From: an uncultured Atribacterota bacterium
GTDB lineage: Bacteria > Atribacterota > Phoenicimicrobiia > Phoenicimicrobiales > Phoenicimicrobiaceae
Assembly (NCBI GenBank): GCA_965602765.1
Contig: CBFCZX010000001.1
Location: forward strand, 1-30,977
DNA length: 30,977 nucleotides
Direction: 5' to 3'
Positions 2,470 to 9,750 of the stretch are shown in pieces. The notes beneath the pieces are model-generated. The model was not told the DNA's origin and made no database searches. It saw only the letters and a list, made by a program, of their open reading frames with translations. The position numbers and the translations under genes were made by a program. Every line of letters starts with the position of its first letter. The first letter of the stretch is position 1.

Positions 2470-3837
2470 TTAACCGTTAAAATATTTAAATAAAAAAGAA
2501 CCGAGGCTAAAATAAATCAGCAAACTTCCAACATCCACAGTTGTTGTGATAAATGGGCCGGTAGCTATAGCAGGGTCGATATTAATTTTTGTAAAAATTA
2601 AAGGGAGTAATGTTCCAACGGTAGCTGCGGCCATCATTGTAATACATAAAGACAAACCGATAGCTATCCCTAACAAATGATTATTTTGCCAAAGCAAAGC
2701 AACAATACCAATAATAACCCCTGCAATACATCCAATTAGTAATCCAACTTTTGCTTCAGTCCAAATATTTCTCCATAACTCATCCAGTTTTAATTGACCA
2801 GTTGCTAGAGCACGAACCGTAATGGTGGAAGATTGAGCACCTACATTACCACCCATTGCCATAATGATTGGGATAAAAAAAGCTAAAGCTACCACGGTTT
2901 GCAAAATATCGGAATGAAATTTTATTATGGATCCGGATATTATTTCCCCAAACATACAAACAAATAACCAGGGAAGACGAGCTTTTGTCCTGGTAAATGA
3001 GTTTGCTTTTATTAATTTATCTTCATACACCTCAAATGAACCGACCATCTTATGAATATCTTCAGTTACTTCTTCTTCTAAAACATCGATAACATCATCA
3101 ACTGTAATTATCCCTAATAAAACCAATTTTTTATTGATGACCGGTAAAGCCAAAAAATCATAATCAGAAATTTTACGAGCGGCTTCTTCCTGGTCTTCAT
3201 TGTCGAATACACTGACAACATCTTCTTCCATTATTTCTGATATTTTTACATCAGGTTTCGCTAAAATTAGGTCACGTAACGATAACACTCCAATCAGTCT
3301 TTCCTTTTTATCGATAATATACACATAATAAATCATTTCCGCTTCCGGACTTAGTTCTCTGATTTTATTGATTGCTTCACCGGCAATCAGATTCTCCGGG
3401 AGAGATACAAATTCATTATTCATAATACTTCCAGCAGTATTTTCCTCGTATTTTAGAAGTTCTTCAATGCCAGCAGCTTCTTCTTTCGGCATTAAATCCA
3501 ATAGTTCGCGTGATTGTTGAGGGGCTATTTCTCCCAGAAAATCAGCTGCTTCATCCGTATCCATCTCCTCTAAAATATCAGAAACCTTTTCCTTGCCCAA
3601 AGCATCCATAATATTTGTCTGAAGATCAGAATCCAACTCAGTGAATAGTTCCGCAATTTTTTCATCATCTTTTAATATTTTGAATATTTCAATGATTTTT
3701 TCGAAAGGTATGTAGTCAACGATTTCCGAAAATTCTGTAGGATATAAACCATCTATGATTTCTTTTAATTTTTCATTTTTTTTGCCTTCTAATAGTCTAA
3801 TGATTGTTTTGGCAAATTTTTTTCTTTTTTCTTCCAT
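2470..3837 (-). CDS. mgtE: MgtE magnesium transporter
   Basis: N-domain, CBS pair (AGSIMNNEFV, GIITVDDVID), TM motifs MAMGGNVGAQS and DPAIATGPFITTTVD. Confidence 0.97.
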   Translation of the reverse strand: MEEKRKKFAKTIIRLLEGKKNEKLKEIIDGLYPTEFSEIVDYIPFEKIIEIFKILKDDEKIAELFTELDSDLQTNIMDALGKEKVSDILEEMDTDEAADFLGEIAPQQSRELLDLMPKEEAAGIEELLKYEENTAGSIMNNEFVSLPENLIAGEAINKIRELSPEAEMIYYVYIIDKKERLIGVLSLRDLILAKPDVKISEIMEEDVVSVFDNEDQEEAARKISDYDFLALPVINKKLVLLGIITVDDVIDVLEEEVTEDIHKMVGSFEVYEDKLIKANSFTRTKARLPWLFVCMFGEIISGSIIKFHSDILQTVVALAFFIPIIMAMGGNVGAQSSTITVRALATGQLKLDELWRNIWTEAKVGLLIGCIAGVIIGIVALLWQNNHLLGIAIGLSLCITMMAAATVGTLLPLIFTKINIDPAIATGPFITTTVDVGSLLIYFSLGSFLFKYFNG

Positions 3838-3936
3838 GATTTCACCCCTTTCTTAAATTATCGGAATATACCAGTTTTAGATTCAAGTCATGACCTTTTA
3901 TCAATATAAGGATTTTATTTATCTATTCTCTATCTT

Positions 3937-4598: not shown

Positions 4599-6080
4599 TT
4601 ATTCTTTTGTTTTTAGTTGCGGGAAAAGAATAACCTCTTTAATTGAGCTTGAATTGGTTAACAGCATCATTAATCGATCGATACCGATACCTAAGCCACC
4701 CGCTGGTGGCAAGCCATATTCTAAAGCTTCTATATAATCTTTATCCATAAAATGACTTTCCAAATCTCCAGCTTCCTTTTTGGCAGCCTGTTCTTCAAAT
4801 CGTCTTTTTTGTTCTGTAGGATCATTTAATTCTGTAAAAGCATTGGCCAACTCCATTGAATTAATAAATAACTCAAAACGTTCAACCAATTCAGGGTTAT
4901 CTTTCTTCTGTTTTGACAGAGGAGATACTTCCAGGGGATAGTCAATGATAAAAGTGGGTTGAATTAATGTCGGTTCTACATATTTTTCAAAAAGCTCATT
5001 GGTAATCTCCCCTCTACTGGCGCTATTTTTAATGTCCAGGTTGTTTTCCCTTATAATTTTTACAAAATCCTTCTCAGGTAATTTTTCCATATCAATGCCA
5101 CATGTTTCTTGAATAGAATCATGCATGCTTATTTTTTTCCAGGGAGAGGAAAAATTGATTAACTTTCCCTGATATTCAATTTCCAGTTTTCCCAATACAT
5201 TTTTAACAATATATACAATTAATTCCTCGGTAATCTGCATCATGGTATGGTAGTTGCCGTAAGCTTCATATAGTTCAACCATGGTAAATTCAGGATTATG
5301 TTTGGTGGAAATCCCTTCATTTCTAAAATTACGGCTTAATTCATATACTTTTTCCAGCCCTCCAACCAATAATCGTTTCAAATATAGTTCCGGAGCTATT
5401 CTCAAATAAAAATCCCTGTCTAGAGCATTATGGTGTGTAATAAATGGCCTTGCCGTAGCTCCACCGGGAATGGGCTGCATAATTGGAGTTTCAACTTCCA
5501 GATATCCTTTGCTGTCTAAAAAATTTCTCAATGATCGAATCACCTTGCTTCTTTTTATAAAAATATCACGAACTGAAGAATTGACAATTAAATCCAAATA
5601 TCTTTTCCTGTATCTTGTTTCTATGTCTTTCAGACCATGCCATTTTTCAGGCAAGCTACGGATTGATTTACATAATAGAGTTAGTTCTTCAGTAAAAATA
5701 GTTAATTCTCCCATTTTTGTTCTAAATACTAAACCAGTAATTCCAATAATATCTCCAACATCAATCTTACTAAAAAGTTCGAAAGTTTTCTGGCCCACTT
5801 TATTGGATTTTATATATATCTGCATTCTACCTTCAATATCTTCAATATCAGCAAACGCAGCTTTTCCATGTTTTCTTAGAGCCATTATTCTTCCGGCGAT
5901 AGTCACTTTTTCTTGACTGCTTTCACCAATTCCAAGTTGATTGAATTTTTGGATTACTTCTCCAATTTTATGCTTTCTTTCAAATCTTTGTCCAAAAGGA
6001 TCAATTCCTTCTTTTTTTATATTTTCTATCTCGCTTCTTTTAATAGAAATCATTTCTTCTGTGCTCTTTTTTATTTCCAT
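4599..6080 (-). CDS. lysS: Class II lysyl-tRNA synthetase
   Basis: OB-fold N-terminus, GGATARPF, FRNEGIS.KHNPEFT, GGLGIGIDRL; start at ATG 6080 after an AAGGA SD. Confidence 0.99.
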   Translation of the reverse strand: MEIKKSTEEMISIKRSEIENIKKEGIDPFGQRFERKHKIGEVIQKFNQLGIGESSQEKVTIAGRIMALRKHGKAAFADIEDIEGRMQIYIKSNKVGQKTFELFSKIDVGDIIGITGLVFRTKMGELTIFTEELTLLCKSIRSLPEKWHGLKDIETRYRKRYLDLIVNSSVRDIFIKRSKVIRSLRNFLDSKGYLEVETPIMQPIPGGATARPFITHHNALDRDFYLRIAPELYLKRLLVGGLEKVYELSRNFRNEGISTKHNPEFTMVELYEAYGNYHTMMQITEELIVYIVKNVLGKLEIEYQGKLINFSSPWKKISMHDSIQETCGIDMEKLPEKDFVKIIRENNLDIKNSASRGEITNELFEKYVEPTLIQPTFIIDYPLEVSPLSKQKKDNPELVERFELFINSMELANAFTELNDPTEQKRRFEEQAAKKEAGDLESHFMDKDYIEALEYGLPPAGGLGIGIDRLMMLLTNSSSIKEVILFPQLKTKE

Positions 6081-6189
6081 CCATCCATCCTTTATTAATT
6101 TTCTGATAACAAAATGATTTAGCAACCTGCATTGTATAAACTAAAGAAGGCAGCAGTATAATTTTATGCCTTTAATGTCATATAAATAA

Positions 6190-6240
6190 ATAATGAACAA
6201 AGCATGCTATATTTGAAATATCTAAAACTTTGTTCATTAT
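6190..6240 (-). terminator. 13-bp inverted repeat downstream of greA, possible terminator
   Basis: ATAATGAACAAAG (6190-6202) / CTTTGTTCATTAT (6228-6240), followed on the minus strand by TTATTT. Confidence 0.45.
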
Positions 6241-6274
6241 CGCATTTATTACAAACTATTCTCTATTTGAAAAA

Positions 6275-6748
6275 TTATTTAATATCTAAAACTTTAAATT
6301 TAAGTTGCCCCGCAGGAACTCTAATTTCAACAATATCCCCTTTCTTTTTTCCCAATAAAGCTTTACCAATGGGAGAAGAGATGGATATTTTACCAAAATC
6401 CGGTTCAGCCTCTACATAATCCAATATGATAAATTTATTCTTCTTTTTAAGCTTTAAATCTTCGACAGATACTTCCGATCCTAATGACACAAATTCCAGA
6501 TTTTTTTTATTTTCATCGATTAACTCATAATTCTCAATGATTCGCTCAAGCGAAAATATTCTTCCTTCAATAAAAGCTTGCTCATTCTTTGCAGCATTAT
6601 ATTCTGCATTTTCAGCAATTTCTCCAAAACTTACTGCATTTCTTATTTTCTCGGCAATTTCTTTTCTCTTAACTCTTTTAAGATGGTGTAATTCTTCCTC
6701 TACCTTTTTTAAACCTTCTGAAGTTAACATCACTTTTTTATCAAACAT
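6275..6748 (-). CDS. greA: Transcription elongation factor GreA
   Basis: LTSEGLKKVEEEL, GEIAENAEYNAAKNEQ, ISISSPIGKALLG; start at ATG 6748 after a GGAG SD. Confidence 0.97.
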   Translation of the reverse strand: MFDKKVMLTSEGLKKVEEELHHLKRVKRKEIAEKIRNAVSFGEIAENAEYNAAKNEQAFIEGRIFSLERIIENYELIDENKKNLEFVSLGSEVSVEDLKLKKKNKFIILDYVEAEPDFGKISISSPIGKALLGKKKGDIVEIRVPAGQLKFKVLDIK

Positions 6749-6819
6749 TGAACATATCTCCAATGACAATTATAGTATAGTACATTTTATGTATTTTAAT
6801 GATTATAAATTAAATATAA

Positions 6820-6876: not shown

Positions 6877-6905
6877 ATTATAAGATATTGGATTTTTCTT
6901 GTCAA
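6877..6905 (-). promoter_or_regulatory. Perfect-consensus sigma70 promoter of greA
   Basis: TTGACA (6905-6900), 17 nt, TATAAT (6882-6877). Confidence 0.85.
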
Positions 6906-7013
6906 ATAAATTTAATCATTGTCTTTATGTAAATAAATAAAAAATTATTTACATGTTTGTTTTCTTTCTAGCAGTGCTATCCAAATTCACAAAATATAAA
7001 TAGCAATTGAATG

Positions 7014-8204
7014 CTATATTATTCCTAATTTTTTACCCGATCTTTCGAAAATATCTAATGCCTCTTCAATGTCTTCATCTGTATGGGTTGACAAAACATG
7101 AGACCTGAGCCTATTTGTTCCTCTTGGTACTGCGGGGAATATAATCGGACAGATAAAAACTCCTTCTTCGTTGACCATTTTACAAAGTTCAAGCGTATCT
7201 TCTTCATTACCAATAATAAGTGGTACGATAGCAGTAATACTCTCCCCGATATTGTAGCCCATTGCGCGAATTCCTGCTCTAAATTTTTTCATATTTTTCC
7301 GTAAATTTTCAATGCGTTCCGGTTCATCTTCAATAACTTCCAAAGCAGCTTTGGCCACTGCAGCTGTAACCGGAGGAAGTGGAGCAGAAAATATAAATGG
7401 CCTAGAATTATGTCTTAAATAATCCACCATATCTTTTTCCCCTGCTATATACCCTCCAACCGAAGGAATGGTTTTGCTTAAAGTACCCATATGAATGTCA
7501 ACTGCATTCTTTAGTCCAAAATGTTCTTCTATTCCGTGGCCAGTTTTACCCAAAACTCCAATAGAATGCGCTTCATCCACCATAACTTTAGCATTGTACT
7601 TTTTAGCTAATCTTGATATTTCGGGTAAATTAGCTACATCTCCCTCCATACTGTATACTCCGTCTACTATGACTATTTTGTTGATAAATTCATCAGAATT
7701 TGCTAAAATTCTTTCCAAACTGTTCATATCATTATGTAAAAAAGTTTTATATCTTGCTCCGGAAAGCATACATCCATCAATTATGCTGGCATGATCTATT
7801 TTGTCCATAATAATCAAATCTCCTCTTTGGTAAAGAGAAGTAATTGCAGCCAAATTTGTTACATAACCGCTGGTATATGTTATTGCAGCTTCTGCTCCCT
7901 TAAATTCTGCAATCTTCGTTTCCAATTCTTCATGCATTCTGGTGGTTCCCGATAAAAGGCGTACTCCGGAAGTTCCTGTTCCATATTTTTCCAGCGCTTT
8001 GATTGCTGCTTCTTTTAATCTGGGATGGTCAATTAAACCCAGATAGTTATAAGATGCAAACATAATTTTTTCTTTTCCATCGATTAATACTCTTGATTCT
8101 GATGCATTCTCAACAGTCTTTAAATAAAAGAATTTACCATCTTCTTTCATTTTATTGACTCTCTGCTTGAGTTCATTAATCCTATTTTCTAATAAAATTC
8201 CCAT
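7014..8204 (-). CDS. PLP-dependent alpha-oxoamine synthase (BioF/Kbl/serine palmitoyltransferase family)
   Basis: FASYNYLGL, DKIDHASIIDG, DGVYSMEGD, VDEAH, GTLSK (PLP lysine); substrate undetermined. Confidence 0.9.
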   Translation of the reverse strand: MGILLENRINELKQRVNKMKEDGKFFYLKTVENASESRVLIDGKEKIMFASYNYLGLIDHPRLKEAAIKALEKYGTGTSGVRLLSGTTRMHEELETKIAEFKGAEAAITYTSGYVTNLAAITSLYQRGDLIIMDKIDHASIIDGCMLSGARYKTFLHNDMNSLERILANSDEFINKIVIVDGVYSMEGDVANLPEISRLAKKYNAKVMVDEAHSIGVLGKTGHGIEEHFGLKNAVDIHMGTLSKTIPSVGGYIAGEKDMVDYLRHNSRPFIFSAPLPPVTAAVAKAALEVIEDEPERIENLRKNMKKFRAGIRAMGYNIGESITAIVPLIIGNEEDTLELCKMVNEEGVFICPIIFPAVPRGTNRLRSHVLSTHTDEDIEEALDIFERSGKKLGII

Positions 8205-8228
8205 AATTATTCTCCCTTTTTTAATTAA

Positions 8229-9137
8229 TTAGTTTAATTTCTCTATTCTCGGTTTGAATCCTATTTTTTCAATTAATTTGAGATAATCATCTGGTAACAA
8301 TTCCTCCGGGGATTTTCCCGAAACTGCTACTAAAGTCGCTTGAAACACATTAGTCCCAAAAGATCTACCTTCAAATTCAGGTGTTGTAGTTATCAAGTAA
8401 CTTACCCCTCTGTTTTTCAGGTCTTTTACATTAGCACTAGTAACAGTATTGGTAATGACTATTTTTCCTTCCATTTCTTCTGGCATATATTGACTTATTC
8501 CTAAATAGTCACCCGCTATAATATCTGCTTTTTGAAAATATTTAATATATTTTGGATTGGATTTCTCCTGTTTTTCACCTGTTGGATATAAGTATTTGAT
8601 GGGCACGTGGACAAATATCGGCAACAATATCCGGGCAATTTGGTTGATGGTTTTAAAAGAATGCATGGGGATAGGAACATTTAAGCAGAAGATTAAATCA
8701 CCAAATGTCATTTCACACCCTGCCTCAATTAATCCTTCAGCCAATCCAAACCGGTCTACGGTAATGGTTACTAAAGCTTTTTTACCTTTTAAAACAATAT
8801 CGGTCTGGTTTTCAACGTACTTGACTACGCTTTTTTCTAAAACATATTTAATCCCAGTACCATCAACGATAGGAGTGTTCTTAATGACACTAACAATCCT
8901 TTCAGATTCCTTTATGGTATATCTTTTTCCATTAGGACCGGAGTATAAATAGAGATCTGTTCCTCCCAGGCTGAAAATATCAACTTTTCCATCATATTCT
9001 TGAAATACCTGTATCATCTTTTTTACGTCTCCATCAGTTCCTCTCCTTTCTATCTCGACCTTTTCACCCAATATTTCAATTTGCACTTTATGGTCTCTTG
9101 TTGAAGAACCCAAACTAACTCCTAAGACTTTCTTCAT
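8229..9137 (-). CDS. Conserved uncharacterised protein (family often auto-annotated 'quinate 5-dehydrogenase')
   Basis: VSLGSSTRDH, ERRGTDGD, TTTPEFEGRSFGTNV motifs recalled from this family; no catalytic evidence for the name. Confidence 0.65.
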   Translation of the reverse strand: MKKVLGVSLGSSTRDHKVQIEILGEKVEIERRGTDGDVKKMIQVFQEYDGKVDIFSLGGTDLYLYSGPNGKRYTIKESERIVSVIKNTPIVDGTGIKYVLEKSVVKYVENQTDIVLKGKKALVTITVDRFGLAEGLIEAGCEMTFGDLIFCLNVPIPMHSFKTINQIARILLPIFVHVPIKYLYPTGEKQEKSNPKYIKYFQKADIIAGDYLGISQYMPEEMEGKIVITNTVTSANVKDLKNRGVSYLITTTPEFEGRSFGTNVFQATLVAVSGKSPEELLPDDYLKLIEKIGFKPRIEKLN

Positions 9138-9161
9138 GTTTAACCCTCCAAAATTCTATTT

Positions 9162-9686
9162 TCAAACCTTTACTTCTTTTACAATTTCCATTATTTTTTC
9201 GGGATTGATATACTTATCTTCTTTGATGGGTGAATGACCGATAACTTTCCCGATTACCTGCACGTTAAATATTTTTTCGACCACAGGAACTCTCCTGTCT
9301 GATCCTAAAAATATTATCAAATCAAAATCTGACAATTGAACGATCACATCCATAATTTTATTAAACAATTCAACTTTGCTTTTTTCTTTAATAAATTCAT
9401 ATCTTTCTTTTTGGGTAAGAAGTAAAATAAATTCAATTCCTATTTCTTTTGCAGATTTAATAATTTCCTCTTTGTTCTTAATTGGAAATCCGATTAAAGC
9501 AATTTTTTTTCCTTTTCTTATCTCTCCCAGGCTTTCTAATCTTGATACAAAAGTCCTCTCGATACCTAACTTACGGGCAACTCCTTCTTGTGTAATACCC
9601 TCAGAGCGTAAATCTAAAATTCTATTTATTTCCTTATTTACTTTTTCCTTGCTAATAACTTTTTCACCGATTCTGATAAAATGCAT
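9162..9686 (-). CDS. HTH transcriptional regulator
   Basis: GITQEGVARKLGIERTFVSRLE HTH; start at ATG 9686 after a CAGGAG SD. Confidence 0.8.
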   Translation of the reverse strand: MHFIRIGEKVISKEKVNKEINRILDLRSEGITQEGVARKLGIERTFVSRLESLGEIRKGKKIALIGFPIKNKEEIIKSAKEIGIEFILLLTQKERYEFIKEKSKVELFNKIMDVIVQLSDFDLIIFLGSDRRVPVVEKIFNVQVIGKVIGHSPIKEDKYINPEKIMEIVKEVKV

Positions 9687-9698
9687 TTCGAAAACTCC

Positions 9699-9719
9699 TG
9701 TATACATTTTTGTATACAT
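9699..9719. promoter_or_regulatory. Candidate operator: two TGTATACA palindromes at 12-bp period
   Basis: TGTATACAT-TTT-TGTATACAT, overlapping the predicted transcription start and abutting the SD. Confidence 0.6.
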
Positions 9720-9721
9720 GT

Positions 9722-9750
9722 AATATAGCATAGTCCATACTCTATGGCAA
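9722..9750 (-). promoter_or_regulatory. sigma70 promoter with extended -10
   Basis: TTGCCA (9750-9745), 17 nt ending TGC, TATATT (9727-9722). Confidence 0.65.

Follow-up and report, generated by a model that had tools for sequence, protein, structure and literature searches.

A compact unit of three genes is located on a 30,977-nucleotide stretch of DNA (contig CBFCZX010000001.1, hereafter the window, meaning the whole stretch that was analysed) from an uncultured marine-sediment Atribacterota bacterium, whose genome assembly comprises 1.63 Mb and is 88% complete. The unit encodes a helix-turn-helix (HTH) regulator, a middle protein referred to here as MID, and an alpha-oxoamine synthase (AOS), and it is preceded by its own promoter and operator (table 1). 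In the genomes of this phylum, AOS genes are found beside MID exactly where the acyl-ACP reductase (AAR)-like gene that accompanies MID elsewhere is missing, which is an indication that one enzyme has taken the slot of another.

Table 1. Features of the HTH-MID-AOS unit and of its downstream edge, in window positions
Feature	Position	Strand	Protein length	Description
HTH regulator open reading frame (ORF)	9162-9731	minus	174 aa	coding start probably ATG at 9686 (9162..9686)
MID	8229..9137	minus	302 aa	named 'quinate 5-dehydrogenase' in databases
AOS	7014..8204	minus	396 aa	belongs to a JS1-Atribacterota-specific clade
Operon promoter	9722..9750	minus		sigma-70 type, TTGCCA-17-TATATT, TG-extended, 10/12 matches
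Operator	9699..9718	minus		two 8-bp palindromes, TGTATACA-N4-TGTATACA, right after the -10 box
greA promoter	6877..6905	minus		perfect TTGACA-17-TATAAT; downstream edge of the operon

The HTH/MID and MID/AOS gaps are of 24 nt each and contain the strong ribosome-binding sites GGAGGG and GGGAGA. Since the operon promoter covers the first ATG of the HTH ORF, the protein most likely begins at the ATG of position 9686, which is preceded by AGGAG. The unit is flanked by mnmA upstream and greA-lysS downstream, and because greA has a perfect promoter of its own, HTH-MID-AOS is a separate unit. The first-pass annotation, made from the sequence alone, had described a self-contained operon with its own regulatory region, short gaps and no bioA, bioB, bioD or tdh neighbors; all of this is confirmed. 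In the host genome as a whole, bioB, bioD, bioA and tdh did not exceed their cut-offs. Past the stop codon of AOS and ahead of the greA promoter there is an AT-only inverted repeat at 6927-6954 (ATGTAAATAA / TTATTTACAT, with a loop of 8 nt). The terminator scan did not report it, and it may act as a weak terminator or as a site for a protein. Short contigs from the RNA libraries of three studies map with at least 99% identity inside the AOS and MID genes, none of them spanning two genes, and give weak support for the expression of both, as DNA carry-over is possible.

The operator is unique in the host genome. There, the 8-mer TGTATACA occurs as 24 single sites against about 61 expected, and the pair TGTATACA-N4-TGTATACA is the sole one, according to searches for exact pairs, pairs with up to 3 mismatches and degenerate TGTnnACA pairs. 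The same searches showed no second operator on other promoters of the genome; the only other hit is an odd site before a GntR gene that adjoins a transketolase gene. Single TGTATACA sites are placed near tctC, gidB and mnmA and not near fatty-acid genes. The design TGT(A/G)(C/T)ACA-N4/5-TGTGCACA precedes the HTH gene in Atribacterota and in metagenome-assembled genomes (MAGs) labelled Bacillota, Actinobacteria and Sumerlaeota, and in related loci the palindromes remain directly 3′ of the -10 box. The window locus, with its HTH gene upstream of MID and its doubled TGTnnACA palindrome after the -10 box, thus has the layout of an HTH-MID module.

The HTH protein itself shows weak matches to HTH_7 and HTH_3 only. 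Its AlphaFold2 (AF2) model (pLDDT 88.7) consists of an N-terminal HTH of the resolvase/Fis type, with HTH structures matching at Z of about 6, and a small C-terminal alpha/beta domain. The latter has generic flavodoxin-like matches only (Z < 7), so no ligand can be named for it. In several phyla the doubled palindrome follows the -10 box directly, and this conservation makes autoregulation the likely role of the protein: by binding this site, which overlaps the start of transcription, it would repress the operon, and a ligand of the C-terminal domain would relieve the repression. MID and AOS would then be co-expressed from the operon promoter.

MID gave no match in sequence searches against Pfam, NCBIfam and the PDB. 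Its AF2 model (pLDDT 96.6) was compared with 48,161 PDB representatives, and the best match is a cyanobacterial AAR (6jzq; Z 13.1, rmsd 4.8, 249 residues aligned), followed by the AAR-like TAD domain of the carmabin pathway (9e4s, Z 11.5). Other folds, namely glutamate/shikimate dehydrogenases and periplasmic-binding folds, are located at Z 9-10.6, and 6jzq tops the next kind of fold by about 2.5 Z.

The family of MID contains 894 representatives at 50% identity and has about 47 columns conserved in at least 80% of the sequences. However, Cys accounts for at most 32% of any column, and a Gly-rich dinucleotide motif is present in only 2 of 81 members; in the AAR-like proteins encoded beside MID, GxTGxIG is kept in 29 of 37 and the Cys motif in 30 of 37. 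Without a conserved Cys and this motif, MID is unlikely to be a reductase, and the earlier suggestion of such an activity is not supported. In comparison with the AAR, PigE-N and TAD proteins, MID shares the predicted fold and lacks the catalytic Cys and the NAD(P) motif, so that the model points to an AAR-shaped protein which would not use the AAR mechanism. The sequence models of AAR (TIGR04058 and a profile of the neighboring proteins) do not match MID, and a profile comparison with the AAR-like neighbors (hhalign) gave a probability below 1%, with only a 14-column GD..F..P stretch aligned.

Fusions of MID connect it with both kinds of partner enzyme. Several representatives, and also two Atlas clusters (56 and 77 members), join MID and an AAR/PigE-N-like domain in a single chain, and one metagenomic protein is an AOS-MID fusion. 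A word-index search for longer fused forms provided two hits only, which were uninformative. The predicted complex of AOS and MID had a score of 0.00, which counts neither for nor against an interaction.

AOS is a member of the alpha-oxoamine synthase family. It matches PF00155 (3.6e-59), and its catalytic motifs DHASIIDG, DEAHS, GTLSKT and RLRSH (His, Asp, His, Lys, Arg) align with the structures of serine palmitoyltransferase (SPT), of the Thermus thermophilus enzyme ThAOS and of Kbl, and are invariant within the JS1 clade. Databases name it variously BioF or Kbl, and JGI names it glycine C-acetyltransferase. None of the specific models reaches its cut-off: the score is 441.7 bits for the CFB-type SPT model NF047600 (cut-off 640), 441.1 for the BioF/Kbl-related TIGR01825 (535.4), 415.2 for Kbl NF005394 (460), 330.1 for Kbl TIGR01822 (493) and 407.3 for BioF TIGR00858 (426.45). 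The best solved structures are the Sphingobacterium SPT (339.5 bits) and ThAOS (317.5 bits).

All members of the JS1 clade carry GVRLLSGT, with Val81 at the position that shapes amino-acid selectivity. This position is occupied by Val in all Kbl enzymes and ThAOS, by Ser in SPT and 8-amino-7-oxononanoate synthase (AONS), and by Thr in 5-aminolevulinate synthase (ALAS), and ThAOS with its Val accepts Gly, Ala and Ser together with C2-C8 acyl-CoAs (PMC11906848). Because Val81 is of the Kbl/ThAOS type, the better guess for the substrate is a small amino acid, with glycine as the most likely one, while alanine or serine may also be accepted.

The maximum likelihood tree of 33 AOS sequences included the characterised BioF and Kbl of Escherichia coli and, as database-annotated references, Alicyclobacillus BioF, Bacteroides Kbl and Roseibium ALAS; experimentally proven SPTs were outside the set. 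The JS1 clade is grouped (100/99) with one Bacillota-like gene and an AOS domain embedded in a polyketide synthase. This group belongs to a wider clade (97/96) with genes carrying the SPT motif, an AOS linked to a fatty acyl-AMP ligase and acyl carrier protein (FAAL-ACP), and the AOS of Atribacterota family f7. The Kbl references, a second AOS of the host and ThAOS-like genes form a separate clade (95/97), and the JS1 sequences also branch apart from the BioF and ALAS references. The clustering with Kbl or BioF which the first-pass annotation had named as contrary to its proposal was therefore not seen. In the genome of the closest non-Atribacterota AOS, the ORF beside the AOS gene (locus L123) is not a relative of MID, and the MID of that genome is placed on another contig.

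The second AOS of the host (contig C61, locus L002; 1480-2715 on the minus strand) is 33% identical to that of the window. It is located directly after a gene for a GalE-like short-chain dehydrogenase/reductase (SDR; 2906-3922, minus strand), the same arrangement as in Bacteroides kbl, and the two probably constitute a pair of SDR-type threonine dehydrogenase and Kbl, judging from gene order and phylogeny. The Kbl function thus appears to be already covered in this genome.

The genomic neighbors of MID were examined in 80 loci. The usual order, found in other phyla, is birA, coaX, dusB, HTH, MID, an AAR/PigE-N-like thioester reductase, greA and lysS. The reductase adjoins MID in about 50 of the 80 loci, and the HTH gene is upstream of MID in 53. 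The neighborhood survey and the fold search, both suggested by the first-pass annotation, converge on this HTH-MID-AAR layout and on the AAR fold of MID; they also bear out the layout that it gave, in which the HTH and 'quinate 5-dehydrogenase' pair usually accompanies a reductase-like gene and a class-III aminotransferase. The aminotransferase gene was seen, with an SRPBCC gene in addition, in an Atribacterota locus of family f6. The operon of anaerobic Bacillota and that of the window share the HTH family, the MID family, the operator design and the position before greA-lysS, but the third gene encodes a reductase in the former and AOS in the latter.

A few observations on the synteny of these loci can be added. 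HTH-MID, with or without the AAR-like gene, is found between dusB and greA-lysS in dozens of Bacillota-type genomes (L016-L089), and in JS1 Atribacterota the HTH-MID unit is again directly before greA-lysS (window 4599-6769), either through a functional link or as inherited synteny. In some Clostridium loci (L060, L063, L070, L081), genes for a butyrate kinase and a TIM-barrel isomerase-like protein follow MID or the AAR-like gene, and in two Clostridium loci an ORF of 301-307 aa also does; these neighbors give hints of short or branched acyl substrates there. Two MAGs labelled Bacteroidota (L026 and L065) have a Bacillota-type synteny (coaX, dusB, MID), and the SPT cut-off was reached in 0 of 41 genomes searched in the phylum of L065; their labels look wrong.

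Within the phylum, 86 Atribacterota genomes were surveyed, and MID is present in 78 of them. MID occurs in both groups of families, that is, in 46 of 53 genomes of families f1, f2 and f7 and in 31 of 32 genomes of families f3-f6. The AAR-like reductase is found in 30 of the 32 genomes of the latter group and in none of the 53 of the former, whereas an AOS gene beside MID or HTH-MID is found in 47 of the 53 and in none of the 32. AOS genes of the window type (at least 65% identity) are restricted to families f1 and f2 and always adjoin MID. In the host genome itself no AAR-like gene was found, and acpP is present.

The two genomes of family f7 carry an AOS of another clade, which is divergent from HTH-MID. 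The HTH/AOS intergenic region of the f7 locus contains TGTGCACA sites before both HTH-MID and the AOS gene. In addition, a Eubacteriales MAG has a ThAOS-like AOS at a distance of two genes from its MID. The AOS genes beside MID therefore come from three clades (JS1, f7 and ThAOS-like), which indicates that the recruitment of AOS to MID has happened repeatedly, at least three times.

In the loci of families f3, f4 and f6 that were examined, the reductase is about 2 kb beyond MID and no adjacent HTH gene was detected. The f6 locus (L120) shows the order coaX, MID, class-III aminotransferase, SRPBCC, AAR-like reductase, which amounts to a split PigE-like set beside MID. PigE of the prodigiosin pathway, a fusion of a thioester reductase and a class-III aminotransferase, reduces a thioester and then transaminates the aldehyde (PMC8341465). 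The sole SRPBCC relative in the host genome (contig C106, L136, 1504-2877) is 24% identical to that of the sister class and adjoins a gene for a membrane methyltransferase of the PEMT/ICMT type.

Since AOS is found exactly where the reductase set is missing, the two appear to occupy the same slot, as the first-pass annotation had proposed for a condensing enzyme. The explanation that we favor, to which an even chance is given, is a non-orthologous replacement, in which AOS would take the place of reductase and transaminase and yield an alpha-aminoketone from an acyl-thioester. In detail, the f6 set of the sister class would convert an acyl-thioester to an aldehyde and this to a primary amine. 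In the JS1-type lineage of the window, AOS would instead join the acyl-thioester to a small amino acid; with the loss of CO2 this would give the alpha-aminoketone in one step and thus functionally replace the two-enzyme route to an amine. The module probably offers a second way of making a product that bears an amine and may be a lipid. Both the window system and the PigE and cyanobacterial AAR (PDB 6JZQ) systems would lead from acyl-thioester to amine, and MID has the fold of AAR; however, the window contains neither reductase nor transaminase, and AOS would yield not an alkylamine but an aminoketone that is longer by one carbon unit.

In this mechanism MID would be the constant partner, and the variable third gene would act on the acyl-thioester. 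MID may bind or present the acyl substrate, or it may dock on the pyridoxal phosphate (PLP) enzyme, as glutamyl-tRNA reductase (GluTR) does with glutamate-1-semialdehyde (GSA) aminomutase and as the reductase domain of PigE does with the transaminase domain; such a role is more likely than thioester reduction in the manner of AAR. The GluTR-GSA aminomutase pair of the C5 haem pathway combines a protein of the AAR/GluTR type with a fold-type I PLP dimer and is a precedent for such docking (PMC8341465), although the likeness to MID is one of analogy only. A hydrophobic, carrier-bound acyl group is hinted at by the SRPBCC partner in the sister class, a protein of lipid-binding type, and by the kinship of the AOS clade with carrier-protein systems. 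A bolder version, which is distinctly unlikely, would make MID an obligate ACP-docking subunit that passes acyl chains of fatty-acid synthase to either the reductase/transaminase pair or AOS, so that one class of Atribacterota would form alkylamines for its membranes and the JS1 class would form sphingoid-like aminoketone bases. If true, long-chain-base lipids would have arisen a separate time among bacteria, in a phylum that is dominant in the deep subsurface.

Several points weigh against the replacement. The relation of MID to the AAR-like proteins rests on the predicted fold, with no similarity detected between sequence profiles. The AOS-MID fusion is a single protein, encoded on a contig of 3.8 kb, and its branch in the tree is very long. 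Val81 and the near-equal scores of the Kbl and BioF models fit a short-chain enzyme of the Kbl/ThAOS type equally well, and the operon has no ketoreductase or N-acyltransferase gene for the making of sphingolipids. Furthermore, some loci consist of HTH-MID without a third gene or with unrelated genes, so MID may function independently, with the third gene possibly as cargo under the same regulation. Finally, the complementary distribution of AOS and AAR amounts to two or three evolutionary events, as related genomes are not independent.

In the most serious alternative, AOS would be a short-chain housekeeping enzyme like Kbl and ThAOS, either a glycine C-acetyltransferase or a broad synthase of C2-C8 aminoketones, that by chance came to stand behind the HTH-MID pair, and MID would be unrelated in function. 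ThAOS and Kbl (PDB 7POA and 1FC4) have the same PLP fold of type I and the same catalytic motifs, Val81 corresponds to Val79 of ThAOS, and the Val is that of the Kbl enzymes in general (PMC11906848). The ThAOS structure is near the best PDB match, the Kbl and TIGR01825 scores are moderately under their cut-offs, the JGI name points in the same direction, and HTH-MID stands without a third gene in some loci. Nevertheless, the JS1 clade is placed outside the well-supported clade of Kbl and ThAOS-like sequences, the host already possesses a Kbl-clade paralogue beside its GalE-like SDR, and no tdh partner exceeds the cut-off. The encoding of AOS together with HTH and MID, its presence exactly where the AAR set is missing, the occurrence of AOS genes of other clades beside MID and the HTH operator in front of the f7 AOS gene also argue against an unrelated housekeeping enzyme. 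This alternative is considered unlikely, although it retains appreciable weight.

According to a second alternative, HTH and MID work as a sensor/regulator pair, in which MID would bind a ligand and act as co-regulator, and the third gene varies without any physical or metabolic coupling to MID. MID does resemble sensor domains of the LacI/periplasmic-binding type (Z 8-9), HTH-MID is the conserved core beside a variable third gene, and the operator is conserved across phyla. On the contrary, the fusions of MID with AAR domains are recurrent, its extensive column conservation would better suit an enzyme or a subunit of obligate kind, and the f3, f4 and f6 loci keep MID without a detectable adjacent HTH gene. 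A pure sensor role is therefore regarded as improbable.

The similarity to SPT, which the first-pass annotation had noticed in several segments, raises the question whether AOS is a true serine palmitoyltransferase that begins sphingolipid synthesis. The peptides GTSGVRLLSGT, YLRHNSRPFIFSA and DGVYSMEGD are present and align with the Sphingobacterium multivorum enzyme (PDB 8GUH and 3A2B), which provides the best solved structure and, in NF047600, the best NCBIfam model, and the wider clade of the tree contains genes with the SPT motif GSRFLNGT. The resemblance is thus real, but it does not extend to identity: AOS remains far below the cut-off of the SPT model, and GVRLLSGT has Val where SPT has the Ser of GSRFLNGT (PMC11906848), so that the label 'serine palmitoyltransferase' is not justified. 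In addition, no gene for a ketosphinganine reductase or a ceramide synthase was found in or beside the operon, and no report of sphingolipids was found for Atribacterota. A true SPT at this locus is quite improbable.

Genes with the SPT motif deserve mention in their own right. GSRFLNGT is found in AOS genes of Bacillota-type genomes, including Caldicoprobacter oshimai (L121, 209-3461; L095, 117-2682). In L121 the gene is flanked by genes for an aldo-keto reductase and an SDR, and in the Caldicoprobacter locus L095 it is beside a gene for a Zn-dependent alcohol dehydrogenase; by their motif, these genes possibly represent sphingoid-base synthesis outside the known phyla. A Bacillota-like MAG encodes an 804-aa fusion (L101, 253-2667, plus strand) of an acyltransferase domain of the FemAB/GNAT type with an AOS carrying a GSP motif, which could be a long-chain-base synthase and an N-acyltransferase in one protein.

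The last alternative, that AOS is BioF (AONS), is very improbable: TIGR00858 comes close to its cut-off and AOS is 42% identical to an Alicyclobacillus BioF inside a bio operon, but bioB, bioD and bioA are missing above cut-off in the 88%-complete host genome, Val replaces the Ser of AONS, and AOS stands apart from both BioF references in the tree.

Overall, the observations of the first-pass annotation are confirmed and its interpretation is partly supported: the replacement in the slot and the placement of AOS apart from Kbl and BioF stand, the reductase role of MID and the SPT label do not, and the use of long acyl chains for an amino-lipid is an inference. Full-text searches of the literature brought up no description of the module or of the AOS variant, no paper that links oxoamine synthases with acyl-ACP reductases, none that meaningfully links Atribacterota with sphingolipids, and no study of MID. 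MID has been without any Pfam or NCBIfam model and under a name, 'quinate 5-dehydrogenase', that lacks support, although its family forms about 900 clusters at 50% identity in records labelled Bacillota, Atribacterota, Actinomycetota, Armatimonadota and other phyla, usually at a fixed housekeeping position. The annotation of AOS as BioF or Kbl is corrected. The swap of the reductase/transaminase set for AOS within one phylum leads to the testable hypothesis that the module makes an amine from an acyl-thioester, and it suggests for MID the role of a partner common to both enzymes, which can likewise be tested. JS1 Atribacterota, which are abundant in marine sediments, may thus make an unrecognised amino compound, possibly a lipid.

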